Notes under the pieces: generated by a model
Database searches by the model: none
Told to the model about the DNA's origin: nothing
The model's input: only the letters and a program-made list of their open reading frames with translations
DNA from: Escherichia phage K1E
Sequence record: KY435490
Direction: 5' to 3' (one strand)
DNA length: 44,246 nucleotides
Part shown: positions 10,943 to 43,095 of the stretch, piece after piece
How the letters are laid out: each line of letters begins with the position of its first letter
Numbering within the stretch: the first letter of the stretch is position 1
Program-made: the position numbers and the translations under genes

Positions 10943-10960
10943 TGTCTCACATGTGAGACA
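10943..10960. repeat. Palindrome TGTCTCACATGTGAGACA (copy 1)
   Basis: Perfect 18-bp inverted repeat, intergenic. Confidence 0.6.
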
Positions 10961-10976
10961 AGCCTTGAGTTAGGTA

Positions 10977-13925
10977 CTACAACTTAACTTTACCTACCTT
11001 AGAACCTTTAGCTAACTTGGTAGGTGCAGCCTCATAAACCTGATACCAACCATCCGCGCCAATACGTTTATGAGTCCATGCCGAGACAGAACCTGCTGGC
11101 ATAGGTCCACCAAACCTAACCCACATGGAGCCATCTTCACGAGTCTCCACTTCGGTAATCTTAGGCACACCACCAGCAGATGCCATATTGTATGCCTCAG
11201 CGCGTCGCTTCAGTAGGCCAGGAATACGCTTACCTTCACTTGATGCAGTGCCCAGCATTTCGATAAAGCCTTCCGTAAGCTTACCAGCTTTAAATGCAGC
11301 AAGAGCACGCGGTGAGTTCTGGATTCCACCTTTACCTAAATTGTAGGTTAAATCCATCAAGCCACGTTGCTGTGCAGGATGCATCTGGTCAAACGGAATC
11401 TTCCAGTCACGAGTAGGAGGCACATGCTTCTTAGCATCTTGCTCCATAAGAGCGCGAGCCTTGCTCTCTGTAAGCTGAGACATAGACCCTCGATAGGGAA
11501 CTAGTTCATCACCAATCTTAATATACCCGTTTCGCTTCTCTTCTTCCGTTAAGAAATGACCGTAACCGATAGACTCACCGCGAGCGTCTTTATATGGAGT
11601 AAAGGTTCCAGTTGCCTTATTAAAGCCAACTTTATCTTTATTCTCATCCATAGCTAGCTTGTCATAGAATTGTTGCATATTACCTCGATAGTTAATCTCG
11701 AAGTTAGAAGGCAGATTCTCACCAGAAGCAAAAGCAGAAGACATGAGGAAGTTAGCTAGTCCAAATTTACCAATATCTTTGGCAGTTGGTTTAGCTGGCA
11801 TAGGCTCTTGTGCACCAATATCTGTACGATACGGGTGAACATACTCGCCTTTATCTCGTTCCTCTACTTTCTTCTGATAGGCAGAATCTAGTAGTGAAGT
11901 GGTATCTAAAGAGGTTACAGGGATTACTCCAGAAAGAGGGCGACCTGCTGCACCAGCACGAATCACAAAAGTTCCTTTCTGTTCATTGTAATCAATGTAT
12001 ATATCATCTTTAGTTTCCCACTCTTGAAGCTCCTTCTTCAATTCTGGCATCTGTGTTTCTACATACCTACCAAGCGCCAGAGGTACATCGGTAGGGTTTA
12101 CGCCTTTCCCAACTGACATAAGCATATCAGATGCAGAAGTGTAATCACCTTTAATGAAATAGCCACCGGAAGTCTTTGCATCCTCTGATTGAGTGTAGCG
12201 TTTATTGCCCCAAGTAATTAAAGCCTTCTTGATAGAATCCATGTTACGCATACCGCTAGACCACAACATATTGGCCTTAGCTCGTAACTCTTCTTCCGCA
12301 ATAGCTTTACCTAAGTCTGACACTTCGGTTTTACCATCAAACCAGCCAGCACCAGATACCTCATCCAGTGCATCTCCAATAGCTGAGTTGAACTTCTTGG
12401 TTTCCTTCTCAGTACGAGAGAATTTCTGCTGTGCTTCACGCGCAAACCTTGCAGCCTGCAAAGGTGTCTCTCCCATTTGTAGTGCAGTGTTGTAGTTATC
12501 CATGTAGCCATTAACCGTGTCACCAAAGACACCTCGGCTCTCTTCTGGCAACTGTTCCCACAACTGGCGAATAGTCATCAACTCCTGTGGTTCGCCCTTG
12601 GCAAAGTGCTCAGGCGATAGCATAGATTCCATGGCTTTGATACGAGACTCAAAGGTGTCATCCACTAAGCCTTTGGAGTTCATGAATTGCAGACGCTGCA
12701 CTTCCACTGCACCACGAATAGCTTCAGCCTCTTGACTGTAAGGATCCAAGCCACGTTGTTTGATTTGCTGGTCTGCATAAAGTTGGCTATCCTGTTTGAT
12801 AACATCAATGTAAGCCTTCTTCTCTTTATCAGTCTTACCTTGGAAGCCAGTCAGGCGGTCGGAGTAAAGCTCACGTCGCATATCCTGCATTGCACCTAGC
12901 TCTGCATTTTGCTTAGCCCGTTGGCGCATCAGTGCCTCTAGCTCTGGATTAGAGAAGACATAGTTACCTGTCAGATTATTAATGTGCTGTGCTCGTTCCA
13001 ACAATTCTTCATCAGTTAAATCACCTGCAAGGTATGATTCTTTAACTTCGAAAGACATACGAGTTACATCAGCTACATTATTCCTAGCCCAAACTGCATT
13101 ACCACTAGTGATGGCTGTGATAAGCTGTGGATTCTTAGCATAAACAGAAACACCCTTATCGTCCTTCACATACTTCAGGGCTTCAGCCATGCTAACATCA
13201 CCGCCTTGTGCAAGTGAAATTGCTCGCTGGACTAACTTCTTGTGCATCTGTTCAGGTAGTAATCCTTGAGTAAGACCTTCGCGGATTCGTTCCTGTAAAG
13301 CATAGCCAGAAGCTTCAGGGTCAATATTAGAATCCCAAGTAGAAGCCACTCGCCCGTCAAAGGTATCCTCACGGTCTGCTTGTTCACGGTCAAGTTTATG
13401 CTGGGTCCGTGTAGCCCAAATCTGAGGCTGCTGTTCTTGGAAGACATTAGTGACCATACGCATAGTATCTTTGTCACCTTGCAACTCAGGGTATTGCTGG
13501 AACAGCTTATTCTGCATCTCATTACGAGAGTCAACCATAAGTTGTGTCCACTCGTCATCCGTCCCTTGGAAACGAGTAGCCATGTCTTTCATTCGTGCTG
13601 CTTCATCATTAGCTAGCAGTTGAGCTTTGACAAGCATGTTAGCACGAGCGCCACCACGAGTTGCATCCTCAGAAGGCATTAATCCGTTATATGCCCGTTC
13701 CATTTGAACAACCTTATCTTCCTCAATCTTCTGATTAAGGATACCAGTGGTAACATCAGCCACGCTGCTTGCTGCACGAATAAGATCTTCGATAAATCTA
13801 CTACCGGAGGTAGAAGCCACGCCAGCCTCCACACCTCCCACTTGTTGAGGTGCAAAGGTCATGACATTAGGAGAAGTGGCCTGCACTTGTGGCAGACCTT
13901 GTACTGCTTGTCGCTCAATTGCCAT
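10977..13925 (-). CDS. Internal virion protein, gp15-like, with a C-terminal lysozyme-like domain
   Basis: 982 aa; C-terminal ...FTPYKDARGESIGYGHFL... resembles the Y.D..G..TIG.GH signature of T4/P22 lysozymes (GH24). Confidence 0.8.
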   Translation of the reverse strand: MAIERQAVQGLPQVQATSPNVMTFAPQQVGGVEAGVASTSGSRFIEDLIRAASSVADVTTGILNQKIEEDKVVQMERAYNGLMPSEDATRGGARANMLVKAQLLANDEAARMKDMATRFQGTDDEWTQLMVDSRNEMQNKLFQQYPELQGDKDTMRMVTNVFQEQQPQIWATRTQHKLDREQADREDTFDGRVASTWDSNIDPEASGYALQERIREGLTQGLLPEQMHKKLVQRAISLAQGGDVSMAEALKYVKDDKGVSVYAKNPQLITAITSGNAVWARNNVADVTRMSFEVKESYLAGDLTDEELLERAQHINNLTGNYVFSNPELEALMRQRAKQNAELGAMQDMRRELYSDRLTGFQGKTDKEKKAYIDVIKQDSQLYADQQIKQRGLDPYSQEAEAIRGAVEVQRLQFMNSKGLVDDTFESRIKAMESMLSPEHFAKGEPQELMTIRQLWEQLPEESRGVFGDTVNGYMDNYNTALQMGETPLQAARFAREAQQKFSRTEKETKKFNSAIGDALDEVSGAGWFDGKTEVSDLGKAIAEEELRAKANMLWSSGMRNMDSIKKALITWGNKRYTQSEDAKTSGGYFIKGDYTSASDMLMSVGKGVNPTDVPLALGRYVETQMPELKKELQEWETKDDIYIDYNEQKGTFVIRAGAAGRPLSGVIPVTSLDTTSLLDSAYQKKVEERDKGEYVHPYRTDIGAQEPMPAKPTAKDIGKFGLANFLMSSAFASGENLPSNFEINYRGNMQQFYDKLAMDENKDKVGFNKATGTFTPYKDARGESIGYGHFLTEEEKRNGYIKIGDELVPYRGSMSQLTESKARALMEQDAKKHVPPTRDWKIPFDQMHPAQQRGLMDLTYNLGKGGIQNSPRALAAFKAGKLTEGFIEMLGTASSEGKRIPGLLKRRAEAYNMASAGGVPKITEVETREDGSMWVRFGGPMPAGSVSAWTHKRIGADGWYQVYEAAPTKLAKGSKVGKVKL

Positions 13926-14647
13926 TAAATACCTCTTGTTCCAGATGAATATGTGCGAGAATCAGTTAAGGCTTTACCCAATGCCTTGCCAGACTTACTA
14001 CCAGTTACATAGGCAGATGCCAGACTTGGAATACCTTTAACCAAGGTATTCATAGCAGAAGGCTTCTTAAACTCACGCATCTGCATCTGACCACCACGTT
14101 GGATAGACTTAAGCTGGTTGGTGAAATTAATCTTCTGATTCTCATAGTTATCAATGATAGTACTCTGGTTCCTGCCGCCATCTGCTGCTAAGTCATTAAG
14201 CATAGAGGACACAGAATTACCACCAGTACCAGTAGCCCCAGCAAGTAATGCAACCTGTGCTCGCTGCTGTAGCAGTGAAGCCTGATTACTGATTGCATCT
14301 GCATGATATTGTTTAGCAGCAGAACGTTCTGCGTCTGCCACTGTCTTGTACGCCTCTTGTGTAGCAATAAGCTGCTGCCGCCATTGCTCTTCTTGTGCTT
14401 TCTTCATCGCCTTGGCTTCATCACTTCCACCAAATAGATCACCAATCAAGCCTAACCCTTGAAGGCCAGCACCAAGAAGGCCAGCATTAGAGAAACCAGC
14501 AGTGGAACCACTTAGGAATCCGCCTAGTGAACCTAGCAAACCTCCGCCACCTGCGGCAGCACCTCCAGCAGCGGCTGCTGCACCACTGCCTGCAAACATG
14601 CTACCAATAGAAGACATACCAGCCATAACGGCTGAACCTATAGCCAT
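13925..14647 (-). CDS. Internal virion protein, gp14-like (Gly/Ala-rich)
   Basis: Internal ATG at 14647 overlaps the upstream stop (TAATG); Gly/Ala-rich N-terminus. Confidence 0.7.
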   Translation of the reverse strand: MAIGSAVMAGMSSIGSMFAGSGAAAAAGGAAAGGGGLLGSLGGFLSGSTAGFSNAGLLGAGLQGLGLIGDLFGGSDEAKAMKKAQEEQWRQQLIATQEAYKTVADAERSAAKQYHADAISNQASLLQQRAQVALLAGATGTGGNSVSSMLNDLAADGGRNQSTIIDNYENQKINFTNQLKSIQRGGQMQMREFKKPSAMNTLVKGIPSLASAYVTGSKSGKALGKALTDSRTYSSGTRGI

Positions 14648-17049
14648 TAGACCCTCCTTTTGGTTGGATTGTAACTCCCTTCCCACTCAATATCGCGAAG
14701 CTGGAATGTATGAGGTGATTCTACAATAATACGATAAACAGCATCCGTACTCTTAGCCCTCAGTGGGAATCTGAAGACACCCTCCCTTGGTTCAACATAA
14801 CCTACTGTGTTGTTGAGAGCACCACCTATACGGTTTGACGCTAGCACCCTGCGTACTTTACCACTCTTCACATTCTTAACTTCCACAGAGAAATCAGGAT
14901 ACATATCAAGATTAAGGTGAACCAACCCCACAACAGGTACATCAATATAGGATACACGATCTTGCCTATCTCTGATAACTACAGGTGTAGGTTCAAACTC
15001 TTGAGGGTAAATCTGACCAACAATAACCTTCGCTTTTACGTGGTTATCATCGTGCATGTCAAAGGTTGTAGACAAGGTGTTATCACTAGGGTTATATTTG
15101 AACAGGAAAGAACCTCCAATGTATGAATCCCACCCTTCTATTAAGATGCAATCCAAAAGTTCTGGGTTAGTAGGAGTCCAAGGAAGTGGTTCAGATATCC
15201 ATTCATCTTCTGCTTTAAAATGCTTGAAGATCAACTCTGCTTGCCTATCCATTCTGATGCGGTCATTCAAACCATAGGTTAGTGCATCACCCATGTCCAT
15301 CTTCTCCAGATAGACGCCATCGCCTCGCTCAAGGAGTAGATAAAGTAATTCACCAGAATAAAACATACCTCGCACCTTTGTACCCATAGGCCACTCCCAT
15401 ACATGCCATGCTGATTGTACACGGTCTGTACCTTGCCATAACCAATCATAGCAATAAATTATGTTACGATACTTATCAGTAGTGACAAGCAATCGGTTGA
15501 CATTGGTACTTGCTGCCATGTTGATAATGTTACCTTCGATAAGCTTATTCACATGACTTGTGATTGCTTGTGCCTTCTTAGTGTCACTATAAGAGTCTGT
15601 ATAGAACTCTCGGACACCAGAGTAAGCACCATCGTTAGTGGCAAACATTACCGATTCACCAGTTACTACTGGCTTCACTTTATTGTTCACTTCAAATGTT
15701 GTAACAGGCTTAAGCAGTGCATTTGACTTCTCTAAAGGCTTATCGCCTGGCAGTATGAATTGTGACTTATCAGAGAACAACACGGTAGCGCCATCTAAGG
15801 TCACTGCATGTTTTAGCTGGTAGACTTCACTAGCATCTGAGAAAATATCAAATGGGTCAGTTGCCAATGCAGAGATAACCGTATAACGAAAGAAATCGAA
15901 GAAGTATGATGTACGAGAAGCAATAACCGCTTCACCTGCTGTAAAGCATAGGCGGTTCTGTACCATGAACATCCCACCTATTGTCTGGGGCACTTCCTCA
16001 TCAATAAAAGAGGGCATAGGGTTAGTCAAGTCGTCCCCTACTTTACGATCTTCCCAATCACCTTGTCTTATCTTGAATTGAGCTATGCCGTCAATGATAC
16101 CTGTACGTTCAATGATGTAAGGCATTGTGCCTTTATCAAACCCGAGTAATACATCAGCAGCTATTGTTTCTTTCCAAGACACAAGGTTTCCCTCTTTAGG
16201 CTCAGCTTGCAGCCAGTAACGAGACTCAGGTTTGCTGCCAGTAGGCCACACTTGTACTTTATAACCAGCAGGCGCACGAGAAGGGAGTAGGTCAGTAGAG
16301 CTAACTTTATTCTTGATAGCCACTAAGTCCTTACCTTTTGCACCATCGGTGGTTGTTATTGTAAAGCTAGCACCATCCCGTCTCTCGATAAATATACTAG
16401 TACCGTCTCTTTGTATTTCATAGTCACTCACACCGCTCCATTGCTGCAACTTAGAGTACAATTCAGAAGTGATACGTTCAGTTCGAATTTGTTCAACATG
16501 GTCTGCACTTCCACCATCCGGTGTTTTAAAACTAGCAGCGTTGGTCCCATTAATTACAATGGAATAAGATGTACCATATTGACCATACGCACAAAACACA
16601 ATGGCTTTGTTTCCAACTTTAGGTGACTTCCTATTACTAACTTTAACCACTTTCCTACGGTTAAGCATAAAAGTAACATCAGCTATAGTCATGAATTGCA
16701 CATCTTCCCTAGGGTTAACAACTTCAGAAAGGTAGGTCATAGGTGCATCTTGAGAGATGACATTGCACTTGCGTCCATGCTTATCAAATATCTCTGGCAC
16801 TTGCCCTTTCTTTAAGGTGAAGAAATACTCTTCATCCCCCTCACCCCTGCGATAATGGTGCGTTGCCATATTATCTGTACCTTCATCCAAGAGCTTAGCA
16901 ATGTGAGTTGTACCCATGCGGGATTGAGTCCCATTCACTACATCAGGGACCATGTTCACCATAGTCGTACATTGACCATCAAGACGTACCGCTGGAGGTT
17001 GCTGGCTAATCCCTTGGATTTGCCTCCCTAATGAACCTTGTACTTCCAT
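14647..17049 (-). CDS. Tail tubular protein B (gp12-like)
   Basis: 800 aa; ATG at 17049 overlaps the tail tubular A stop (TAATG). Confidence 0.85.
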   Translation of the reverse strand: MEVQGSLGRQIQGISQQPPAVRLDGQCTTMVNMVPDVVNGTQSRMGTTHIAKLLDEGTDNMATHHYRRGEGDEEYFFTLKKGQVPEIFDKHGRKCNVISQDAPMTYLSEVVNPREDVQFMTIADVTFMLNRRKVVKVSNRKSPKVGNKAIVFCAYGQYGTSYSIVINGTNAASFKTPDGGSADHVEQIRTERITSELYSKLQQWSGVSDYEIQRDGTSIFIERRDGASFTITTTDGAKGKDLVAIKNKVSSTDLLPSRAPAGYKVQVWPTGSKPESRYWLQAEPKEGNLVSWKETIAADVLLGFDKGTMPYIIERTGIIDGIAQFKIRQGDWEDRKVGDDLTNPMPSFIDEEVPQTIGGMFMVQNRLCFTAGEAVIASRTSYFFDFFRYTVISALATDPFDIFSDASEVYQLKHAVTLDGATVLFSDKSQFILPGDKPLEKSNALLKPVTTFEVNNKVKPVVTGESVMFATNDGAYSGVREFYTDSYSDTKKAQAITSHVNKLIEGNIINMAASTNVNRLLVTTDKYRNIIYCYDWLWQGTDRVQSAWHVWEWPMGTKVRGMFYSGELLYLLLERGDGVYLEKMDMGDALTYGLNDRIRMDRQAELIFKHFKAEDEWISEPLPWTPTNPELLDCILIEGWDSYIGGSFLFKYNPSDNTLSTTFDMHDDNHVKAKVIVGQIYPQEFEPTPVVIRDRQDRVSYIDVPVVGLVHLNLDMYPDFSVEVKNVKSGKVRRVLASNRIGGALNNTVGYVEPREGVFRFPLRAKSTDAVYRIIVESPHTFQLRDIEWEGSYNPTKRRV

Positions 17050-17786: not shown

Positions 17787-17799
17787 GAATCCTCCTAAC

Positions 17800-17826
17800 A
17801 AAAAGAACCCTACCTACGCAAGGTAG
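17800..17826 (-). terminator. Stem-loop plus T-run after the capsid gene (T7 T-phi analogue)
   Basis: Coding-strand CTACCT-tgcgt-AGGTAG followed by GGTTCTTTTTG, between the capsid stop and the gp11 RBS. Confidence 0.45.
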
Positions 17827-17840
17827 ATAGGGCATAGGTA

Positions 17841-19043: not shown

Positions 19044-19096
19044 TAATAAACCTCCTTATAAATCAAATTGATAATTTAGGGAGACATTTCTCCCTT

Positions 19097-19114: not shown

Positions 19115-19119
19115 ACTGA

Positions 19120-21589: not shown

Positions 21590-21590
21590 A

Positions 21591-21800: not shown

Positions 21801-21809
21801 GTTATCTCC

Positions 21810-26916: not shown

Positions 26917-27288
26917 TCAAAAATCTTCCTCTTCGCTAACCGGAGCTTCCGGTGCAGACACTTCTACTGCAGGAGCTTCAGCTTCTTCAGCAGCTTTAAC
27001 TTCTTTCACTGGTTTACCAGCAGCAATCCAATCCAGATATTCAGCTACGATGTTAGCCTTCCCGATCTGGGCTTTGTCAGCCTGCTCAGGGAAGCAAGCA
27101 CGAGCGAACTCCAGACCAGCAGCGAAGTTACCCATGCTGTCAATCTTAGCCTGAGCTTCTTCACGGGTATCGTAAGCCTTAGTACCAGCTACCAGTTGAT
27201 CAGCTTCATCGACGATAATGAAAGACTCAACGGATACCAGAGCAGCACCTTTAACAACACGGTTTACGATAGTTTCAATCTTGAACAT
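26917..27288 (-). CDS. Hypothetical protein (123 aa) with acidic C-terminal tail ending in Phe
   Basis: C-terminus ...VSEEEDF; promoter upstream at 27344..27361. Confidence 0.55.
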   Translation of the reverse strand: MFKIETIVNRVVKGAALVSVESFIIVDEADQLVAGTKAYDTREEAQAKIDSMGNFAAGLEFARACFPEQADKAQIGKANIVAEYLDWIAAGKPVKEVKAAEEAEAPAVEVSAPEAPVSEEEDF

Positions 27289-27343
27289 ATTAAATTCTCC
27301 TTTTGTTGGTTATGGCATTATCGCCGATTAAAATTCTTCTCTT

Positions 27344-27361
27344 CTATAGTGTCCAGTAAAT
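27344..27361 (-). promoter_or_regulatory. Phage RNAP promoter (ATTTACTGGACACTATAG)
   Basis: Exact consensus. Confidence 0.7.
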
Positions 27362-27376: not shown

Positions 27377-27392
27377 GTCTCACACGTGAGAC
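27377..27392. repeat. Palindrome GTCTCACACGTGAGAC (copy 2, central variant)
   Basis: Intergenic, 15 bp upstream of promoter 27344..27361. Confidence 0.55.
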
Positions 27393-27621: not shown

Positions 27622-28428
27622 TTAATATTCCGCGTCCTCATCCATCTCCGGTGCAGGAGTATCTTCTGCTTCAGGTACTTCCTGTGGAACAGACTCACCA
27701 GTATCCAGAGATTTACGATTAGCTGGGGTAGCATCTTCCTCGTCTTTCTTCTTAGCCTTCTTCCATTCAGGGTCTTCTTCACGAGCAGCTTTGATAATAG
27801 CTTCTACGTGAGAGCCAGCAACAGACAGGTTCTTACCACGAGGTGTCTCGTTCAGGAAGTATTGACGTACCAAGTTAGCTGGGATGTCATCAAGGATTTC
27901 TTTGGTCAGCTTGTCGAAGGTGATATGACCTGTCATAGACAGACCTTCCTCTTCTACCTGAGCCAGTACAAGCTTCTTCAACTTATCAGGCATACCGCCA
28001 AAGCCTTTCCAGTTAACATACTTGAAAGTACCATCATCATTCTTGTCGCCAGAGCCAACCATAGTTGCAGTCAGACATTCACCGATAAAATCATCGAAGC
28101 CACCCAGCAACTCTTTAGGGTCAACTGCATTCAGGAACTTAGTCAGTGTTGCCTTATCACCAGACTTCAGAGGCACAGCCATCCATTGTTCCATGCGAGA
28201 ATCATCTTCATTCTTATCGTCGTCGCCCATCAGGATAATCTTAACAAGAACAAAGTTTGCTGGCTTCTTAACTTCAGTGGTATTACCTTTCTTAAAGATA
28301 TCTTGGAAGGAACCAACATGAATGATGCCAGAGATTACTGCTTCATGATCACCAACTTCAGGGTTCTTAAATAATTTACCTTCAGCTTTAGTAACCTGAG
28401 CACCAAAATCAAAATCACCACGTGCCAT
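27622..28428 (-). CDS. Putative ssDNA-binding protein (T7 gp2.5-like role)
   Basis: 268 aa; acidic C-terminal tail ending in an aromatic residue (...DEDAEY); own promoter; assignment is by position and tail, not motif. Confidence 0.5.
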   Translation of the reverse strand: MARGDFDFGAQVTKAEGKLFKNPEVGDHEAVISGIIHVGSFQDIFKKGNTTEVKKPANFVLVKIILMGDDDKNEDDSRMEQWMAVPLKSGDKATLTKFLNAVDPKELLGGFDDFIGECLTATMVGSGDKNDDGTFKYVNWKGFGGMPDKLKKLVLAQVEEEGLSMTGHITFDKLTKEILDDIPANLVRQYFLNETPRGKNLSVAGSHVEAIIKAAREEDPEWKKAKKKDEEDATPANRKSLDTGESVPQEVPEAEDTPAPEMDEDAEY

Positions 28429-29275: not shown

Positions 29276-29343
29276 CATGTTAGACAAAATAAGTAGGAAT
29301 AAGTTATTCATAAAGGCCACTCGTAAGTGACCTTGAGTATAAC

Positions 29344-29442
29344 TCAGTCGTAGTTACCATCACAATCTGGGTCAATGCCAGAGAAAGCCCAGAATACTAC
29401 CATAAATAATATGATCCCAAGAATGATAAAAGCAGTTTGCAT
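29344..29442 (-). CDS. Small hydrophobic peptide (32 aa)
   Basis: MQTAFIILGIILFMVVFWAFSGIDPDCDGNYD; GAGGAGGG RBS; start overlaps the upstream stop. Confidence 0.3.
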   Translation of the reverse strand: MQTAFIILGIILFMVVFWAFSGIDPDCDGNYD

Positions 29443-32104: not shown

Positions 32105-32198
32105 ACATTTCCTCCACCCAATAATAATCATCTGAATGTTCAGGTTTTGGATTCATTGAGTCATAGTGGTCCCAATCAGAATCATAATCACGTGACAT
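32091..32198 (-). CDS. Possible small acidic peptide (35 aa) overlapping the DNA polymerase start
   Basis: ATG after GGAGGTG; MSRDYDSDWDHYDSMNPKPEHSDDYYWVEEMYEDC. Confidence 0.25.
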   Translation of the reverse strand: MSRDYDSDWDHYDSMNPKPEHSDDYYWVEEMYEDC

Positions 32199-32228
32199 AA
32201 TGCACCTCCAATCAATATGATGAAAGGC

Positions 32229-32246
32229 TGTCTCACGTGTGAGACA
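32229..32246. repeat. Palindrome TGTCTCACGTGTGAGACA (copy 3)
   Basis: Intergenic, upstream of the DNA polymerase; flanked by AAAGG/CCTTT. Confidence 0.55.
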
Positions 32247-32275
32247 ACCCTTTACTTATCGACTGCGTGTTACAG

Positions 32276-32669: not shown

Positions 32670-32679
32670 GATTAACTCC

Positions 32680-32889
32680 TTAAATATTCACGTAGGTTTC
32701 TTCAGTAACAATAGGGAGATACAGTAATTCTTCACCATTCAAGAGGTGAAGACCTTTCAACCCTTGCTTACGGATAATACCTTCTATAGTGTCGGCAAAA
32801 TGCTTATTAGCTACACGTCGTGGTGTACCGTGTTCTGTGATTGCATGGTCAACATCCATGATTCGCACAGGTACATTTGGGTGCATCAT
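32680..32889 (-). CDS. Hypothetical protein (69 aa)
   Basis: ORF only. Confidence 0.4.
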   Translation of the reverse strand: MMHPNVPVRIMDVDHAITEHGTPRRVANKHFADTIEGIIRKQGLKGLHLLNGEELLYLPIVTEETYVNI

Positions 32890-33368
32890 GCTTCACCAAT
32901 CTTCACCATAGCTTGTCCTGTGGATTTACCAAGAGCACGAGTGTTAAACTGCGTAACACCTAGTGCAGTGCCACATTGCTTAATCATTTCACTTTGAGTC
33001 TTACCAGTGATTACATTGCGGCGATCTTTATTAAGTGTAGTTTTACCTTTGCCATATGCCTCTGCTAAGGTTTGAATGCCAGCACCATAGCGAAGAGGGT
33101 ATAATAGCATTTTATGCATCTGGCGGGCACACTTATCGCAAATCTCATCGTGTACGCACTTACATTGATTGCTTACCTCTCCAATCTTCTCAAGGTAGTT
33201 ATGTGCTGATTCCTTTTGATAAGCCTGTCTAATACCATTACTGTACTCTACATAGTAGCTGTTTTCACTTACATTAGTCACAGTACCACGGCAACGATAT
33301 CTACGTGAGGTTGCATTGATGTTACGAACATAATCACCTGCATTCAATACTAATTTATACATAATCAA
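32886..33368 (-). CDS. Hypothetical Cys-rich (zinc-binding?) protein (160 aa)
   Basis: CKCVHDEICDKCARQMHK cluster. Confidence 0.55.
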   Translation of the reverse strand: MIMYKLVLNAGDYVRNINATSRRYRCRGTVTNVSENSYYVEYSNGIRQAYQKESAHNYLEKIGEVSNQCKCVHDEICDKCARQMHKMLLYPLRYGAGIQTLAEAYGKGKTTLNKDRRNVITGKTQSEMIKQCGTALGVTQFNTRALGKSTGQAMVKIGEA

Positions 33369-33400
33369 TCTCCAGTTATTTAATGTACTTAATAAGAGCC

Positions 33401-33418
33401 TGTCTCACATGTGAGACA
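33401..33418. repeat. Palindrome TGTCTCACATGTGAGACA (copy 4)
   Basis: Same 24-mer (CCTGTCTCACATGTGAGACAAGCC) as copy 1. Confidence 0.6.
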
Positions 33419-33434
33419 AGCCCTGATAAATACA

Positions 33435-33596
33435 CTAGATAAGGCGTGTTACAATAAAGAACATTGACATAAGAAAACCAGATGCAACGATAAGTTTCAC
33501 CGCTTTCTTGAATCCATATCGTGCAGCATAATCTGCGATCACAAGCATGAATAGGATCTCAATACCGATATTCAATACTGGTTTAATAATTTCCAT
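33435..33596 (-). CDS. Small membrane protein (53 aa) after the primase/helicase
   Basis: MEIIKPVLNIGIEILFMLVIADYAARYGFKKAVKLIVASGFLMSMFFIVTRLI; start overlaps the upstream stop (TAATG). Confidence 0.3.
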   Translation of the reverse strand: MEIIKPVLNIGIEILFMLVIADYAARYGFKKAVKLIVASGFLMSMFFIVTRLI

Positions 33597-35584
33597 TAAA
33601 ACTCCTGTTCATCTTCAAAGTTTGTCTCTTCTATAGTGTCCGGTAAATCAGGCACCTCTTGCTGCCTTGCTTCACCTGTATCAAATGACTTAGTACGGGC
33701 TTGTGGTTCCATCAAACGTCCGGTCTGAATGTCACCTTTAAGCATGACCTTGGTTCCAGTGTAGATACCTTGATCGCGGTCTTTGACACACGAGATGTAC
33801 GTGGTAGTCCTTTCATCAAGCGTTTCAGCTCTTGTATTACGCTCAATCCCCAAGGCGTAAGATGCCCAGAATCCGATAGCGCCTGAGCCTCGGAAGTCAG
33901 AAAGGATAACTTCGCCACCTTCTTCGTGTTGGGTACGGTTTGCCGGAGGACGTGTAAGGTGAGAGACAAGGAAAATCGTAACCGCATGTCGGTCTTTGAT
34001 AGTACCAATTCGTTTGACGCATTCATCAAGTGCACCAACCTTCCCACCAAAAGCACGCTCATCTAATTTAATCCCCGTTAAGTTATCAATGATGATATTA
34101 GAAATGCCCATAGCCTCAAACTCTAGGCAAGTTTGCTCTACCTTCTCCATAGAATAATCGCCTTCTAGGTCAGCCACAAATAGCTTTCCTGTATCAGCTA
34201 CATAATCAATGGCAGCGTTAGCTTCTTCCTCGGTGTAGTCGAACACCTCACGGTATCCGTCTTCTTTCGGGTCGTTGGTTGGCGGTAACTCAATACGCTT
34301 ATCAATCCACTTGCCGATAAAAGCACGGGACACCTTGACCATTGGGTCTTCTGTAGAAATGATGCCTACAGATTCACCGTGTTCTTCAATGAGATGTTTA
34401 ACCACTTCGCGGAGGAACTCAGTCTTACCTACACCAGAACCTGCACCTACAATGATAAGCTGGTTCTTACGAATACCTAGCGTTACCTTGTTCAGCTTAG
34501 GCCAAGGCCATGATAGTCCTTGCTCTGGACGTGCAGCCTTGAGCTTATCCCTTTGAGATGCGATAGATTTAATCTGGCTACCAAAGACTTCATCAGATGA
34601 CTTGGCATTAAACCAAGCATCAACAAACTCTTTAGCCTTGCCAGCCATCAATGCCTTGTTAGCATCTTTGCAACCAGAAGGGTATTCAAGGATATAGGAT
34701 TTGCCAGGAAACAGGCGAGCCGCTTGCTGATTCTGCTTCTGCCCCACCTCGTCGCCATCAAAACCCCATATAATCTTCTTAAATTGGGCGATGTGTTCAC
34801 GGTTCTGTACTATCTCTTCAAGGCAAGACTCACCTTTATTGACAGACCATACATGGTAAGGCTGGCCTTCCCACTTAGTACCCTTGGCAGAATCAAGGAG
34901 CATTTGCTGTGCTGCTAGTGCATCAAGTTCACCACCTACAATAAGCAAGCAATCCTTTCGTCTTCCCTTGTCTAACACGTGAGACAAAGTATTCATACCG
35001 AAAAGATCTTGCATACCAAAGAGTTTACCTAAATGACCAAACTTAAAGTCTTTAGGTAATGTGCGACACTTAGCGCCTACTAGCTCACCTTTCTCGAAGC
35101 GTGGATAGTAATGCCGTGAGACTCTACCATCTTCATCGTGTCCGACACGTACATCATACAATGCGCAAATGTCGCCGCGAATGTGTCGGGAAACAAGATT
35201 CTTACGCTTAAGCGTGAGGAACCATTCAACATCAAGTTTCCACTCTGTTTCTTGGTCTGCCCTTTCTTGCTCATTCATGACCTCCCAACGGTCTTTCATA
35301 CGCATACCACCAAGTGCGATGGCGCGTAGCTTAGGGTCGCTAATCTTCCCTTCCTTCTCCATCTCTTTAAACTGAGAAGGTGTATATTTGATATTGCCAG
35401 TAATAGGTAATTCGGTTATCTCGATGCCACCCTCTGGCTTATGGTAATAAGGCTTGCCGTTATCATGGAAGTGACCACGGTTACAGTAACCAGCGCCATC
35501 CTCAAATATCATAAGATGGTTGCCAGTAATATCATGTCCATTCTTTTGACAGGCAGGACACGGTACATTCTGAATAATAGCCAT
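33596..35584 (-). CDS. DNA primase/helicase (T7 gp4-like)
   Basis: N-terminal Cys/His zinc motif (CPACQ...CNRGH); Walker A GAGSGVGKTEF; acidic C-terminal tail ending ...EDEQEF. Confidence 0.9.
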   Translation of the reverse strand: MAIIQNVPCPACQKNGHDITGNHLMIFEDGAGYCNRGHFHDNGKPYYHKPEGGIEITELPITGNIKYTPSQFKEMEKEGKISDPKLRAIALGGMRMKDRWEVMNEQERADQETEWKLDVEWFLTLKRKNLVSRHIRGDICALYDVRVGHDEDGRVSRHYYPRFEKGELVGAKCRTLPKDFKFGHLGKLFGMQDLFGMNTLSHVLDKGRRKDCLLIVGGELDALAAQQMLLDSAKGTKWEGQPYHVWSVNKGESCLEEIVQNREHIAQFKKIIWGFDGDEVGQKQNQQAARLFPGKSYILEYPSGCKDANKALMAGKAKEFVDAWFNAKSSDEVFGSQIKSIASQRDKLKAARPEQGLSWPWPKLNKVTLGIRKNQLIIVGAGSGVGKTEFLREVVKHLIEEHGESVGIISTEDPMVKVSRAFIGKWIDKRIELPPTNDPKEDGYREVFDYTEEEANAAIDYVADTGKLFVADLEGDYSMEKVEQTCLEFEAMGISNIIIDNLTGIKLDERAFGGKVGALDECVKRIGTIKDRHAVTIFLVSHLTRPPANRTQHEEGGEVILSDFRGSGAIGFWASYALGIERNTRAETLDERTTTYISCVKDRDQGIYTGTKVMLKGDIQTGRLMEPQARTKSFDTGEARQQEVPDLPDTIEETNFEDEQEF
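33631..33648 (-). promoter_or_regulatory. Phage RNAP promoter (ATTTACCGGACACTATAG) inside the 3' end of the primase/helicase gene
   Basis: Exact consensus. Confidence 0.65.
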
Positions 35585-35587
35585 AAC

Positions 35588-35716
35588 TTAGAACTCCCAC
35601 GCAGCGCGTTTAGATGCACGGTCACGGACAGGTTTATTCAGCTTCTTGCCTTTCGTCTGCCCTTCTTCCATGTCAAAACGGTTAGCTTTACGGGTCATCT
35701 TCTCAAAGTTACGCAT
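35588..35716 (-). CDS. T7 gp1.1-like small basic protein (42 aa)
   Basis: MRNFEKMTRKANRFDMEEGQTKGKKLNKPVRDRASKRAAWEF resembles T7 gp1.1; GGAG RBS. Confidence 0.6.
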   Translation of the reverse strand: MRNFEKMTRKANRFDMEEGQTKGKKLNKPVRDRASKRAAWEF

Positions 35717-35747
35717 GGTTAAAATCTCCAAAGTGAGTTAGTCTTAT

Positions 35748-35765
35748 CTATACTGTCCGGTAAAT
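35748..35765 (-). promoter_or_regulatory. Phage RNAP promoter (ATTTACCGGACAGTATAG), one mismatch
   Basis: Second of two tandem promoters after the RNAP gene. Confidence 0.6.
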
Positions 35766-35770
35766 ACGAA

Positions 35771-35786
35771 GTCTCACATGTGAGAC
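35771..35786. repeat. Palindrome GTCTCACATGTGAGAC (copy 5)
   Basis: Abuts the upstream edge of promoter 35748..35765. Confidence 0.6.
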
Positions 35787-35941
35787 AACCTAGGTCTGCC
35801 CTTCCTCTAAGTGGTAATAAGAGGAAGGAAGAAGGTAATAGGTATTCCTAGGTATTCCTAGATAACCTATATAACCTTTAATACCTATTACTTCCTTTAT
35901 ATCCTTTATCTTCCCTTTCTTTCCCGTCTCCGACGGCTATC

Positions 35942-35959
35942 CTATAGTGTCCGGTAAAT
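35942..35959 (-). promoter_or_regulatory. Phage RNAP promoter (ATTTACCGGACACTATAG)
   Basis: Exact consensus; first promoter after the RNAP gene. Confidence 0.7.
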
Positions 35960-35961
35960 AA

Positions 35962-35977
35962 GTCTCACATGTGAGAC
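35962..35977. repeat. Palindrome GTCTCACATGTGAGAC (copy 6)
   Basis: Abuts the upstream edge of promoter 35942..35959. Confidence 0.6.
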
Positions 35978-36010
35978 ACTTTTATGTTAATTAAATGTTA
36001 CAGGTAGTAG

Positions 36011-36044
36011 GTAAAGAAAAAGGCCACTCCCTAAGGAATGGCCT
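36011..36044 (-). terminator. Intrinsic terminator after the RNAP gene
   Basis: Coding-strand AGGCCATTCC-ttag-GGAGTGGCCT followed by TTTTTCTTTAC. Confidence 0.6.
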
Positions 36045-36051
36045 ATTAATA

Positions 36052-38679: not shown

Positions 38680-38742
38680 CTTGTTTACTCCTAGTGAAAG
38701 AAACCTTAATAGGTGACACCTAAGAAGATGCCACCGATAAGG

Positions 38743-39627
38743 TTACTTAGTTAATTCTTCTACTGCCTCAGAGATTAAGGGCCATGCTTCATGGCCTTCG
38801 CCGTAGCCTAGCTTAACCAGTTCGCGGCGTGCCTTGTTAACTGCTGTTTTCTTCGTTGCCTCCTCAGCGCTTAAACCTAAGCGAGCATAGAAGCAGGAAG
38901 ATTTGAATTGCGGCAGCATAGGCGCGGCTGCCTTCTTGCTTTCGCGTGCGCTACTTAAGGAGGCGATGCGGTCATTGGCTGCCTGTAATTGCTCGGTCAG
39001 TGCCTTAATTTGTGCTAAGAGGCTAGCCATAGCGGTGTTTTCGGTATTAGCCGTGTTATCCAGCGGCGCTGCCTTTGGCGCTTCCGGTTTGCTTTCCTCT
39101 TCCCAAGGTGCTGATTCGTCGGCCTCCTGCTCGCTCGCGGGTGGCACTACCTGCGGCGCTTGCATTTCCTGTGATTCTGCGGACTCAGTCGCGTTCTCCT
39201 GCGGTTTTACTGTCTCAGCCTTAGATTGTACCGTTTCGGCCTTTGACTCTTTCTTAGGTTCAATCAGGGCGTTTACGGCATTAGTGTCCAGCTTGCCATC
39301 TGCGGCGAGTTCTGCGGCCTTCTCCATGATTATATTTTCATCAGCGAAAGGAACAAGCGCCAGCATTACACGCATCGCCACGCCTTTAAAGCGATCATCG
39401 CCTTCAAAGACACGGGCTACACTCATCAGCTTGTAACATTGTGCCTTCTTAATGGCAAACTCTGCTTCAACATAGGCTAAAAACTCTTTTTGACCTTCAA
39501 AGTCTCCGCGTAACTCATTCAGACAAGCCCCTACTTTGATGTAAGAAGTGCCAATATTGTCTAAATGTTGCTTGATTTCAGCGGTTGCAGCTTCACGGAC
39601 AGACACGAGGGTGTTTTCAGTAGTCAT
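38743..39627 (-). CDS. Hypothetical early protein (294 aa) with a central acidic low-complexity region
   Basis: ATG at 39627 after AAGGTGA; sits at the T7 gene 0.7 position but has no kinase motifs. Confidence 0.65.
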   Translation of the reverse strand: MTTENTLVSVREAATAEIKQHLDNIGTSYIKVGACLNELRGDFEGQKEFLAYVEAEFAIKKAQCYKLMSVARVFEGDDRFKGVAMRVMLALVPFADENIIMEKAAELAADGKLDTNAVNALIEPKKESKAETVQSKAETVKPQENATESAESQEMQAPQVVPPASEQEADESAPWEEESKPEAPKAAPLDNTANTENTAMASLLAQIKALTEQLQAANDRIASLSSARESKKAAAPMLPQFKSSCFYARLGLSAEEATKKTAVNKARRELVKLGYGEGHEAWPLISEAVEELTK

Positions 39628-39690
39628 AGTAATCACCTTATATAGTGTAAGTAAATATCACATAGCCCACTCAGGTAGGCTATAGGCTAG

Positions 39691-39876
39691 TTACTCTTTC
39701 CATAAGTGTCTTAGTGTTTTGTTGCAGTACTCGTAGGTGTTGCTCTTGCTGCACAAGTTGAACTTTTTGGCCCAGTCTTGCTGGGCTTGTTCTACTTTAT
39801 AAGCGTCATAACCAGCTTTAGCGGTAAATGCCAGAGCAAGAGAAGCCAACAAGAAGCATCCAATCAAGGTTTTCAT
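39691..39876 (-). CDS. Small secreted protein (61 aa, N-terminal signal peptide)
   Basis: MKTLIGCFLLASLALAFTAKA... signal peptide; AGGAG RBS. Confidence 0.5.
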   Translation of the reverse strand: MKTLIGCFLLASLALAFTAKAGYDAYKVEQAQQDWAKKFNLCSKSNTYEYCNKTLRHLWKE

Positions 39877-39944
39877 AATCTCAACTCCTAGTAAGTGAAA
39901 GTTTAATCAGGCGCTACCGTAGCAACGCCTTGTTAAGTCTTCTC

Positions 39945-39962
39945 TTATAGTGTCAGCTAAAT
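39945..39962 (-). promoter_or_regulatory. Promoter-like sequence (ATTTAGCTGACACTATAA) upstream of early genes and the RNAP
   Basis: Close to the SP6 consensus but with A at +1. Confidence 0.35.
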
Positions 39963-40068
39963 AGCTTGTATGTAGTTCCTAGTACTTCCTCACGAATCTG
40001 CGCAAATCGTAAGGAACATTTCAGGGTTACACCGTCTGAGAAGATAAAGTTATATTGCCTTTCCATCT

Positions 40069-40425
40069 TTATTCTTCCTCCTCTTCTTCTGAATCCTCAG
40101 CGGAATCGATGTACGCATCAATCATATCTTGAACACGTTCCCATAAATCAATGGTGAGTTGTTCATAAATACGGGCTTGTAGTACGACCGTCACATCCTT
40201 AGTGTCTGGCATTAAGCCAGAATCCTCGAAGAAGTGGTCGATGCCTTCACTGGCCATCACCGAGAAGATGTCAGCATAATAGATTGGTACAGCACTATCC
40301 GCCACCTCATGGATTGCATCATGTGCGTTATCGATACAATCAATAGCATCATCCCAGATACGTTCAACTAATGCAGCATGAGCGGTGTTGTAAACCTGAG
40401 AGTAAGTCATATTAGACATAGCCAT
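40069..40425 (-). CDS. ocr: Ocr-like DNA mimic (T7 gp0.3 homologue)
   Basis: MAMSNMTY...[44 protein letters not shown]...[15 protein letters not shown]... strongly resembles T7 Ocr; ATG at 40425 after GAGGA. Confidence 0.85.
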
Positions 40426-40846
40426 GTTATTAATCCTCATTTAGTTAGTTAGGTTACATTATAGGAGACTCAAGAGAATCTCCTAGGTTTAACCTATCCA
40501 GACTAAGAAGCGACTACCCATATTGTTAAAGAGCGTGGCTTGTGCTTGATAGGCTGGCTAGTGCCAGCCTTATCTTTCCTACTTAATTGCAGCCTTACAT
40601 GACTGTATCCAATGCTCCACGGCATCTGCCAAGTTGTCATACACCATAGCAGCTATTCCGTGATTCACTTCATACTCTTCGGAAGATACTTAGTTATGCT
40701 GATACTTACGCCGTTGATTGTAGTGGTAACGATTAAAGTTTCCATGATAATTTACCTTTCTGTTAGTAAGCCTATCAAGACACAAACCAGATTGTTAAAG
40801 GGCTAGGTTAGTGCCTTGATAGGCCAGCTATTAAGCTGGCTTATTG

Positions 40847-41059
40847 CTACAATTCTCCATCATTCAGTGCTTTAAGCCATCTGTAACCAGTGGCCTTACT
40901 CACATTAAGATACATGTTACAGAAGTCCACGAACTCATCATGTGTTGGCTGTTTGTCTGCCTTATAGTGTGCAAGCAGTACAGCCATCTTCTTGATAATC
41001 CGCTTCTCTTGTTTCTCACGTTCCATGCGTAATTCGTGAGCGATGTCGCAGTAGTTCAT
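40847..41059 (-). CDS. Hypothetical early protein (70 aa) with a C-terminal HTH-like segment
   Basis: ...VSKATGYRWLKALNDG. Confidence 0.45.
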   Translation of the reverse strand: MNYCDIAHELRMEREKQEKRIIKKMAVLLAHYKADKQPTHDEFVDFCNMYLNVSKATGYRWLKALNDGEL

Positions 41060-41342
41060 AGTTCACCTTAGTAAGTAGTTAGCCTACCAAGCACTAGCCC
41101 GATTGTTAAAGAGCTAGAGATTAGACTCGCGGGTGTGCTGCCATCCTTACGCTATTGCTATCCATAACTGGGCTATAAAGCTGGGCAATCCTTTTGCCAC
41201 CAGTTTAATTGTGGGAAAGCCTCCTTGTCCCTCACACCGATACTCCCGGCCTAATCTCTATTGTTAAAGAGCGTGATGTTTAAAGACGTCGCCGTCTTGA
41301 TGCTTAATGTAACCTTGTATGCCGTGGTTGTCAATAGTTAAT

Positions 41343-41567
41343 TTAGAGATTTGTCGTGATTACTTCATCGTAATCATAATCTTCACTACCTAGATACTCA
41401 GTAATGACTTGGTTGTCATACTCAGATACTAAGGTAACTCGGTGGTATTCAGTGTCGTAATCTAGTAGGAAGTGATGTACATCAACACCTACGCCAGCTT
41501 GTAGCATATCATCGTGGAAGCGAATAGCTTCGCTAGATGATTCAAAAAATACCTCATGTTGATACAT
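41343..41567 (-). CDS. Hypothetical early acidic protein (74 aa)
   Basis: Start overlaps the upstream stop (TAATG). Confidence 0.45.
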   Translation of the reverse strand: MYQHEVFFESSSEAIRFHDDMLQAGVGVDVHHFLLDYDTEYHRVTLVSEYDNQVITEYLGSEDYDYDEVITTNL

Positions 41568-41746
41568 TATTTACCCTCCCTCAATTCATCTATCATGTTA
41601 CGGTATTGATTAACTGTATCGGTCCAACCTTCGTTAAGGAATCGGTGATACAAGGCTAACTCATCCTCCGTAAGTAATTCGTTGTTACGAATCATGTAGC
41701 ACAACAGAGTGAAGAGAACGGACAGTTCACGGTTATTTAATGTCAT
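41567..41746 (-). CDS. Hypothetical early protein (59 aa)
   Basis: ATG at 41746 after AGAGGGTG. Confidence 0.4.
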   Translation of the reverse strand: MTLNNRELSVLFTLLCYMIRNNELLTEDELALYHRFLNEGWTDTVNQYRNMIDELREGK

Positions 41747-41960
41747 GATTAGCACCCTCTTTAAGAACTTTGATAATGCGGTTATATGCAGTACCTGTAA
41801 TAACTAACTTCTTACCCATCTTAAGATCAATATAGTGCAGATACTTAGGCGAATAATCATAGTTATCTGGTGTGCGCATCTTACATAAGTCATAACCTTT
41901 ATCGAGGAAGTGCTGAATCTCATCAACTGGCATGTTGTACGCTTTTACTTGTACTTTCAT
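41733..41960 (-). CDS. Hypothetical early protein (75 aa), first gene after the terminal region
   Basis: ATG at 41960 after GAGGGA. Confidence 0.45.
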   Translation of the reverse strand: MKVQVKAYNMPVDEIQHFLDKGYDLCKMRTPDNYDYSPKYLHYIDLKMGKKLVITGTAYNRIIKVLKEGANHDIK

Positions 41961-42183
41961 AGTTAATCCCTCATTCAATAAGTAATTAACCACGGCATAC
42001 ACAGGTTACACTAAGCAAATTGTTAAAGAGCATTGCGCTAACCTTGGTTTATCGTGGTAGGTTATGCTTGCGCCATCTTCCACTATCTAACATTGTTTAA
42101 CGGCTTCAGTAGCTAGGCCGGATAGTTAAGGACGCTCTCTATCATTCACCCTGAGTGTTTAATGTCGCTCCCGACTGATTGCT

Positions 42184-42212
42184 AATGTATACCTGTTAAC
42201 TGCCTATGTCAA
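42184..42212 (-). promoter_or_regulatory. Candidate host sigma70 early promoter (TTGACA-N17-TACATT)
   Basis: Perfect -35 hexamer and 17-nt spacer on the coding strand, about 220 nt upstream of the first early gene. Confidence 0.4.
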
Positions 42213-42259
42213 CACTAAATTTAACTAAGATAGATTATTTATGTGATACATGTCACAAC

Positions 42260-43095
42260 TACTAAGATAAACCTAGGTTGTCTAACATGTGAGACTAAGG
42301 AAAGCAATAGATACAGAGCTAGGATAGACTAGGTTGGCTAGGTTTCTGGTGTTCCTCCTACTGCATCTTATTACTATTACTTCTTATTAGCGGTCTACCG
42401 ACCGCGACCTAATTGCATCTTATAGCTTTAGCTATGCAATCACTAAGATCTGGCACTAAGACTAACTAAGGTACACTACTAAGTTGATACTAAGCTAAGC
42501 ACTAAGGCTTTAACTAAGGTAGCCCACTAAGGCTAACCTAAGCCATCCATCAAGGAATAACCTAAGGTACACAAGCGCGGTGAGTGTAGCGTAACGTAGT
42601 GGAGCGAAACGAACAGATAGCCCACCCACGCCCACCCTGTCAAACGCTCAGGAATGGCCCTAAAACGGCCTGTGTAAGCCCTAAGCGGTTGCACTAAGGC
42701 AATCACCTTGTCCAATACTAAGGCGTGCCCTAGCGCTTCCTAGGCGTTCTCCTTGTGCAGCCACTAAGAGCAGACCTCGGCAAGCCCTAGGCCACCCGTC
42801 GAAGACGGACCAGCCCAGCCCAATTCCCAAGCCAACCGCAGCGCGGCCCCATATGGGGGAAATCCGGCGAGGGCGAGGGCGAGACACCTCACACACGCCT
42901 ATATCAAAATTTTGACTTTGGTTACTTTGTGAGCGACCTCCGTATCTTCTCGTCCCTTATTTGGTCTTCACTAAGAATGTACCTCTTACGACCTAGGACA
43001 TCACTGAGTATACACAACAAAGATAACATACCTACACCCTCCTTTGATGGCACTAAGAGCAAACCTAGGTCTGCCCTTGTGTACACTAAGATATT
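42260..43095. repeat. Terminal-region repeat arrays of (C)ACTAAG(G)/CCTAAGG short motifs flanking a GC-rich island
   Basis: About 17 copies of ACTAAG in a noncoding stretch; analogous to T7 CCTAAAG arrays beside the terminal repeat. Confidence 0.5.
42280..42295. repeat. Palindrome-like GTCTAACATGTGAGAC (copy 7, one mismatch)
   Basis: In the terminal noncoding region; its flank is an inverted copy of the copy-5 flank. Confidence 0.45.

Follow-up and report, generated by a model that had tools for sequence, protein, structure and literature searches.

A Dispersed Palindrome in Escherichia Phage K1E as a Probable Recognition Site of the Early Protein gp6

The stretch of DNA analyzed here (the window; 44,246 nucleotides, sequence record KY435490) comes from Escherichia phage K1E and contains eight copies of a 16-bp element, GTCTCAC-RY-GTGAGAC, in which two half-sites, TGTCTCAC, flank a 2-bp R-Y spacer. 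Comparison of this sequence with those of related phages suggests that the palindrome is probably recognized, as duplex DNA, by an early protein that the phage itself encodes, namely the homologue of gp6. A preliminary description of the window had considered, among several roles, an operator for a dimeric DNA-binding protein. That proposal provides the best fit for the whole family of copies (concerted alleles, symmetric degeneracy, and changes in coding copies that break the hairpin and improve the site), although not with the 70-residue protein that had been named as one candidate.

Copies of the Palindrome in the Genome

The studied genome is 97–98% identical to those of the K1E/K1-5-type Escherichia phages (genus Vectrevirus, SP6-like subfamily Molineuxvirinae). 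All genes of the window are carried by the minus strand, 89% of the genome is coding, and ten SP6-type phage promoters, also on the minus strand, share the consensus ATTTACCGGACACTATAG. The record is circularly permuted, with the physical left end of the genome located at position 42884 of the window. A search for GTCTCACATGTGAGAC with at most two mismatches finds eight matches in the window, compared with 0.03 expected from shuffled sequences, and seven of the eight are intergenic despite the high coding density (P ~1e-6).

Three copies form the apical stems of hairpins on the minus strand. The first of them (10944–10959, within a perfect 18-mer at 10943–10960) is located between two large internal-virion-protein genes in hairpin 10909–10984, the second (32230–32245) lies upstream of a small gene preceding the DNA polymerase gene in hairpin 32195–32270, and the third (33402–33417, within a perfect 18-mer at 33401–33418) is found downstream of the primase/helicase gene in hairpin 33367–33442. 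Three other copies are placed directly upstream of minus-strand phage promoters, as had been observed previously, at distances of 2, 5, and 15 nt. The copy at 35962–35977, immediately beyond the early terminator downstream of the RNA polymerase gene, is 2 nt upstream of promoter 35940–35959; the copy at 35771–35786, on the right-hand side of an AT-rich, origin-like spacer, is 5 nt upstream of promoter 35746–35765; and the copy at 27377–27392, with GT in the center of its coding strand, is 15 nt upstream of promoter 27342–27361. The copy at 42280–42295, with one arm mismatch, is located ~600 bp from the left end, upstream of the first early sigma-70-type promoter. The eighth copy (34970–34985) is found within the primase/helicase coding sequence (CDS; 33596..35584, minus strand), where it reads GTCTCACGTGTTAGAC on the coding strand and encodes S-H-V-L-D.

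All seven copies listed in the preliminary description are present where it placed them, and the identical 24-mer reported there is common to copies 10944 and 33402. The term "perfect palindromes" applies to only four of the seven, as copies 27377 and 32230 have an asymmetric center (AC/GT) and 42280 has the arm mismatch mentioned above. The assertion that the element never occurs inside a CDS is contradicted by the eighth copy, which had been missed and is conserved in relatives. The likeness of the half-site to the end of the T7 genome is a coincidence; SP6-like genome ends begin with TCTCGCC/TCTCTCGG, and the left end is at 42884.

The spacer 35787–35939 (minus strand), bordered by copies of the palindrome on both sides, is AT-rich, contains repeated AAGG/TAGG motifs, and is situated between two tandem phage promoters, following the RNA polymerase gene and its terminator (36021–36044). 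This layout resembles the primary replication origin of T7 at phi1.1A/B. Near the left end, 24 nt downstream of the palindrome, TGTGACATGTATCACA (42242–42257, minus strand) constitutes a perfect CRP-type core (TGTGA-N6-TCACA), centered at about −72 of the first early sigma-70-type promoter (−35 hexamer at 42212). This core is kept in SP6 and, in part, in Klebsiella relatives.

The location of several copies at the ends of transcription units might suggest that the palindromes terminate transcription intrinsically or make it pause, whether by the phage polymerase, as raised in the preliminary description, or by that of the host, and a consensus scan does flag 35977–35962 and 35786–35771, each with a 6-bp stem and a T-rich tail. 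However, only these two copies pass this lax scan, the stems are very short, and the fold z of copies 35771 and 35962 is close to 0. Several copies lack a U tract, among them 27377, which is followed by AAATCGG, and a terminator between the gp35 and gp36 genes would shut off all of the downstream late genes, with the next promoter ~7 kb away. Relatives carry copies inside the RNA polymerase and primase/helicase genes, both of them essential, and the concerted switching of the stem sequence, described below, would be left unexplained. We consider such a role very unlikely.

Alleles of the Palindrome in Related Phages

Conservation of the element in related phages, a check proposed in the preliminary description, is clearly seen. 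The element is found throughout the subfamily at orthologous slots, in phages of Escherichia, Salmonella, Klebsiella, Proteus, Pectobacterium, Erwinia, and Vibrio, in the form of lineage-specific alleles. In K1E, all eight copies are at the same places, and in SP6, which has zero copies of the GTCTCAC form, the orthologous slots hold GTCYAAC-RY-GTTGGAC. The K1E group and the group of Erwinia phage Era103 share GTCTCAC with a 2-bp spacer, and the group of Vibrio phage Vp670 has the same half-site with a 3-bp spacer. Salmonella, Klebsiella, and Pectobacterium phages are characterized by GTCCAAC with a 2-bp spacer, and Proteus phages by GTCCAAC with a spacer of 3 bp in the majority of slots. GTCTACA is the half-site of a distant metagenomic lineage, and GTCTAGT that of the group of Pectobacterium PP99 and Escherichia ECBP5. 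Both the slots and the sequence are kept down to ~45% identity of the RNA polymerases.

Each genome carries a single allele at every slot. Since all slots switch allele together between lineages, a sequence-specific reader acting in trans is indicated. The arms are conserved and the spacer sequence is free, and positions 7 and 10 stay complementary even though a 2-nt RNA loop can neither form nor use such a pair, which points to symmetry of the DNA type. The R-Y center of the enterobacterial lineages represents a symmetric degeneracy, the outcome expected of a symmetric dimer on duplex DNA.

A functionless repeat, either selfish or maintained by gene conversion, could also be uniform within a genome, since recombination can homogenize short dispersed repeats in the highly recombinogenic T7-like phages. 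A length of 16 bp is, however, too short for efficient conversion, and the conservation of both slots and sequence, the amino-acid changes that accommodate the site, and the strong avoidance of coding sequence all make this explanation the least credible of those considered.

The PP99/ECBP5 group has, in addition, a second repeated palindrome, GTACTAG-N4-CTAGTAC, located beside the GTCTAGT/GTCTCGT sites (L183 at 161, 7939, and 8017; L213 at 14768 and 14844; L216).

The gp6 Homologue and Its Predicted Structure

The gp6 homologue (gp6 of K1E and gp7 of SP6, PHROG 4571) is encoded on the minus strand at 38743..39636 by an early gene located upstream of the RNA polymerase gene. The open reading frame (ORF) comprises 297 residues when counted from GTG, with the likely start at the ATG at 39627 giving a protein of 294 residues. 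The protein occurs in every lineage that bears the element, and both are absent from T7. The family is small, with 111 representative clusters among 1.84 billion proteins.

The model of gp6, obtained with AlphaFold2 on a 12-sequence alignment, starts with an all-helical N-terminal domain (residues 3–122, pLDDT >90), in which helices 46–57 and 61–74 form a helix-turn-helix (HTH). This domain is followed by a disordered linker (126–192), a long helix of 43 residues (192–234), and a J-like domain (239–293), in which the predicted fold is that of J domains and the HPD motif is replaced by G-H-E-A. The top Foldseek matches are DNA complexes of Noc, VirB, KorB, and ParB, none of them statistically significant, and the N-terminal domain is predicted to be an HTH domain with the ParB/KorB/SopB fold. 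A sequence-profile search against the chains of the PDB yielded no informative match. Among 103 family members scanned with Pfam, DUF3102 was matched in 30 and DnaJ in 10, with the protein encoded in the window remaining below the threshold for both. None of the 103 members matched an N-terminal ParB/Srx (CTPase) domain, and the DNA-binding domain begins at residue 3. A ParA-type partner was not found among the 62 annotated genes of K1E, although no dedicated search of every ORF was made. The literature covered contained nothing on the element or on gp6 (two 2004 papers on the SP6 and K1-5 genomes, in which the repeat is possibly mentioned, were outside this coverage) and no functional study of DUF3102.

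Covariation of the Recognition Helix and the Half-Site

The recognition helix of gp6 (...EF-x-IKKAQCY-K-LM-S-V...) includes two residues, K66 and S69, which we take, by the general HTH convention, to be at the canonical base-contacting positions 6 and 9. One position of this helix, that of K66, varies in step with the half-site. In ~100 loci, Lys is paired with GTCTCAC (in three separate clades), Asn or His with GTCYAAC, and Arg with GTCTA... Out of 2,263 gap-free columns in the proteins shared by 12 genomes, a single one separates the allele classes, and this column is K66 of gp6; the RNA polymerase, the primase/helicase, and the DNA polymerase contributed no such column to the scan. An initial covariation screen, in which genomes with the C allele were required to be invariant, missed K66, since SP6 has His at this position, and the column was found when the screen was rerun by class.

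Contigs of family members with other helix variants were searched prospectively for palindromes, with no sequence presupposed. Sites were found in five of these additional lineages, and in four of them they fitted the predictions. A helix with Trp, Tyr, and Lys at positions 63, 65, and 66 (W/Y/K) is accompanied by three sites reading GTCTC[T/C]T, in which the correspondence of Lys to TC held and that of Trp to GT held only partly. The Q/F/N variant, found on a 2.5-kb contig, has one perfect GTCCAAC-AC-GTTGGAC, as predicted, and S/Y/N has three to four sites with GTCTAAC, inside the Asn class. The Q/Y/D variant revealed a new allele, GTCCGAC, at three sites, in agreement with the pairing of Gln with AC. 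The prediction failed for Q/Y/R, for which GTCTAAC was expected and GTCTCAC was found. Two further contigs, L220 (Q/Y/R, 2.6 kb) and L222 (Q/F/N, 2.0 kb), contained no site and were too short. These look-ups ruled out a strictly modular residue-to-base code; as far as the compared sequences indicate, the association of residue and allele holds at the level of the family, and the code is context-dependent.

The concerted alleles alone do not single out gp6, and a reader acting in trans could be another phage protein or a protein of the Enterobacterales host; further conserved proteins with no assigned function, such as the homologues of gp16 and gp18, do exist in these phages. The alleles, however, ignore the host, as the E. 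coli phages of the K1E type and Erwinia phage Era103 share one allele and Salmonella, Klebsiella, and Pectobacterium phages share another, and only K66 of gp6 separates the allele classes, so that a different reader appears improbable. The 70-residue protein named in the preliminary description (40847..41059) makes a poor candidate, as its match to HTH_23 is weak (E 0.011) and a homologue is present only in K1E among 11 relatives, whereas the element is found across the subfamily. Recognition by primase (the GTC site of T7) and host sites of the CRP/IHF/LexA type were rejected on the grounds that the alleles ignore the host; the SP6 primase, moreover, reportedly uses GCA. The internal virion proteins gp35 and gp36 were also rejected as the reader, since they are divergent in the K1E group but their versions in Era103, which has the same allele, are unlike them.

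These internal virion proteins (10977–13925 and 7604–10912, minus strand) are in the K1E group 37–43% identical to the versions found in SP6, Klebsiella, Proteus, and Pectobacterium phages. These latter versions are 53–81% identical to each other, and the neighboring genes are 64–90% identical. Judging by these identities, the pair in the K1E group looks like a replaced module.

Copies within Genes

The intragenic copies always use the single benign reading frame, which encodes the peptide S-N/H-V/T-L-D, and they are hosted by genes of the primase/helicase, the RNA polymerase (in several genera), and a ligase or kinase. In phages with the GTCTCAC allele, the coding copies read GTCTCAC..GTTAGAC, the imperfection being due to the TGA stop codon that a perfect palindrome would create in that frame. 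A change from Asn to His, which improves one half-site and breaks the hairpin, arose separately in the K1E group (in the primase/helicase) and in Era103 (in the RNA polymerase). In Vibrio phages, the corresponding position of the RNA polymerase gene also carries a site, but the frame differs, as does the encoded peptide. As read from these sequences, selection in the coding copies acts on the nucleotides themselves, and neither on pairing in the RNA nor on the encoded protein.

In several lineages, one palindrome is located inside the gene of the gp6 family itself, in the part that encodes the linker (L183 at 3875, L182 at 10465, L221 at 2186, and L180 at 10363). A parallel is provided by the parS site located inside spo0J of B. 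subtilis.

Copies in RNase III-Type Hairpins

Processing by RNase III, also among the roles listed in the preliminary description, is supported for copies 10944, 32230, and 33402, and not for the other five. With their flanks, these three copies form stems of 13 bp that contain G.U pairs in the coding-strand sense and show compensatory changes between genera, and each hairpin is bipartite, consisting of a lower stem, an internal loop, and an upper stem (RNA fold z = −3.6, −4.4, and −6.4, respectively). The hairpins are collinear with RNase III sites of T7, with that of copy 10944 aligned with R0.5/R1.1/R18.5, and a joint alignment with the T7 sites includes 20 consensus pairs, 14 of which show compensatory changes. 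A covariance model trained only on seven RNase III sites of T7 matches the hairpin of copy 10944 (10909–10984) with 29.4 bits (E 0.0012), and its matches to 33367–33442 (18.2 bits, E 0.25) and 32195–32270 (16.7 bits, E 0.53) are weak. The slot between gp35 and gp36 is matched by this model in 7/7 relatives with 29–43 bits, including Era103, which has no palindrome there.

The three copies resemble the RNase III signals of T7 (R0.3, R0.5, R1.1, R4.7, and R18.5, among others) in having a lower stem, an internal loop, and what appear to be the boxes ACUCAAGG ... CCUUUAUGA, as well as in their location on the coding strand, between genes, in long polycistronic transcripts. At the RNase III cleavage positions of T7 (sequence NC_001604), the boxes in common are ACTCAAGG..upper stem..GGCCTTTAT^GAT. 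In T7, the upper stems vary from site to site, whereas in the three hairpins of the window the upper stem is ~4 bp longer and is always formed by the one palindrome, which also occurs alone at five places. On the strength of this sequence comparison, copies 10944, 32230, and 33402 cap T7-type RNase III-style signals, at which cleavage is predicted.

A signal of the same type without the palindrome is found on the minus strand at 29285–29352 (50.8 bits, E 4e-8 with the T7-trained model; fold z = −3.8). Since signals lacking the palindrome exist both there and in the gp35/gp36 slot of Era103, the two elements can be separated as modules. None of the other five copies has the RNase III architecture; 27377, 35771, 35962, and 42280 have only a 6-bp stem or none and do not fold significantly, with a fold z of +0.3 for both 35771 and 35962 and of −2.3 and −1.4 for the remaining two, and the intragenic copy 34970 folds differently. 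A search of Rfam gave zero matches across the window at E up to 1.

Further RNase III-like signals without the palindrome are detected by the T7-trained model on the minus strand at 40436–40501 (22.4 bits), 38684–38753 (18.0 bits), and 1641–1706 (21.1 bits). Two of the palindrome-free signals, one preceding the ocr gene and one preceding that of the RNA polymerase, are counterparts of R0.3 and R1 of T7.

It might be supposed that all copies are RNA hairpins only, acting as RNase III sites or in the protection of mRNA 3′ ends, and that their identity results from common descent or homogenization. The embedding of three copies in T7-type RNase III signals, with their G.U pairs and compensatory changes, and the location of the promoter-proximal copies at the 3′ ends of transcription units would agree with this assumption. 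It is contradicted by the five copies in which no stem extends beyond 6 bp and by the RNase III-type sites without the palindrome (29285–29352 and the Era103 slot), which indicate that the palindrome is dispensable there. Also contrary to it are the changes in coding copies that break the hairpin while improving the site, the C.A-type mismatches at slots other than those of RNase III, the position of the left-end copy upstream of the early promoters, and the joint switch of allele at all slots. We regard a role in RNA alone as unlikely. The orientation of G.U versus C.A pairs was abandoned as a general test for a role in RNA, as pairs of either orientation are also present at slots not associated with RNase III.

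Proposed Mode of Action

If the palindrome is indeed recognized by gp6, the protein would dimerize via its long helix, and the two HTH domains, carried by long flexible linkers, would each bind one half-site, with K66 of the recognition helix reading the variable positions 4 and 5. The eight sites would be lodged where a 16-bp palindrome costs least in a compact genome. Three of them would reside in the apical stems, free in sequence, of T7-type RNase III hairpins, and these copies would also act as RNA. Three others would occupy short spacers upstream of phage promoters, two of them bracketing the origin-like region that comes after the gene of the RNA polymerase. Of the remaining two sites, one would use the single benign frame in the primase/helicase gene and the other would be close to the left end.

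Several observations weigh against this interpretation. Phages of Proteus and Vibrio have a 3-bp spacer, and Proteus phage Pm5460 has both spacings; the tolerance of 2-bp as well as 3-bp spacers requires that the DNA-binding domains be flexibly tethered. The site centers are found at about −27, −30, and −40 relative to the promoters, and such varying spacing makes a simple operator geometry unlikely. The fold scores are moderate. The Q/Y/R helix is accompanied by GTCTCAC instead of the predicted GTCTAAC, and the W-type helix by ..TT/CT rather than ..GT. Finally, the lineages are related, so that the number of independent co-transitions is small (~5–7).

By analogy with KorB and ParB, the likeliest role of bound gp6 would be site-specific loading on the incoming chromosome, by which the origin and the middle transcription units, those of DNA metabolism, would be insulated or regulated. 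Other options would be help at the origin or chromosome organization. Through its J-like domain, gp6 might also bring in a partner, for example Hsp70.

Comparison with Known Systems

The sites of ParB-parS, Noc-NBS, and SopB-sopC resemble those of the phage in being palindromes of 14–16 bp, and they are often intragenic and clustered near the origin. Half-site TGTCTCAC is similar to that of parS, TGTTTCAC, and one lineage of the gp6 family uses GTTTCAC. In contrast to systems of the ParB-parS type, that of gp6 has neither a CTP-binding domain nor, among the annotated genes, a partition ATPase; it belongs to no plasmid or prophage, and its half-sites are separated by 2–3 bp. It should therefore not be taken for granted that gp6 spreads along DNA or forms a clamp. 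Similar differences are apparent in the comparison with KorB, a global regulator of the ParB family that binds the O_B operators of plasmid RK2. The gp6 protein has no detectable sequence similarity to KorB and no ParB/Srx CTPase domain, but includes a coiled coil and a J-like domain instead, and it is encoded by a strictly lytic phage with no ParA/IncC partner among the annotated genes. The gp6 family overlaps with the DUF3102 and J-domain proteins of Pfam through its matches and the predicted J fold, although gp6 itself lacks the HPD motif. As in ParB and Noc, in which a few residues of the recognition helix switch the specificity according to a published study (PMC7383237), the specificity of gp6 seems to be switched by few residues of that helix.

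In an unrelated, high-GC viral contig of the actinobacterial type (L082), four tandem copies of TGTCTCACGCGTGAGACA are found at 2061–2161, between a ParA-like gene and the gene of a 334-residue protein without any Pfam match. The helix of this protein is similar to that of gp6, and the two proteins show a weak profile match in hhalign. The repeats are probably a centromere-like array.

We can tentatively speculate that SP6-like phages, and related phages that encode an RNA polymerase, may carry a hitherto unrecognized ParB/KorB analogue without the CTPase domain, composed of a DUF3102-type DNA-binding domain, a coiled coil, and a J-like domain. Such a protein would mark 8–12 palindromes on the incoming chromosome and tether a chaperone-recruiting or regulatory module to them, organizing middle transcription and replication globally in a strictly lytic phage, and it would provide a readable protein–DNA recognition code.

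Other Genes of the Window

The gene of the K1E gp10 type (PHROG 6703, 229 residues) is represented in the window by two ORFs on the minus strand, 32886–33368 (160 residues) and 32680–32889 (69 residues). The gene could be truly divided, or the two ORFs could result from a frameshift or an error of sequencing. Two conserved proteins with no assigned function, encoded on the minus strand at 26917–27288 and 27622–28428, end with acidic tails, ..SEEEEF and ..MDEDAEY. These tails recall the C-terminal tails with which gp2.5 and gp4 of T7 bind the DNA polymerase, and the two products may be single-strand-binding or replisome proteins.

Implications

The Lamassu/DdmABC defense is triggered by T7-type RNase III palindromes (PMC11707656), and by this route the palindromic elements may influence the host range. 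If the proposed recognition is correct, a conserved early gene of SP6, K1E, K1-5, and their Klebsiella, Erwinia, and Vibrio relatives would acquire a testable role together with eight binding sites, in a group of phages that is widely used in therapy and biotechnology. The DUF3102 family would gain its first function, and the pairs of protein and site (K/TC, N/CA, D/CG, and others) would provide a natural allele series for studying the evolution of DNA specificity. The element would also exemplify how compact genomes hide a DNA site in RNA hairpins and coding frames, and the engineering or recoding of such phages would have to keep the palindromes or alter them jointly with gp6.

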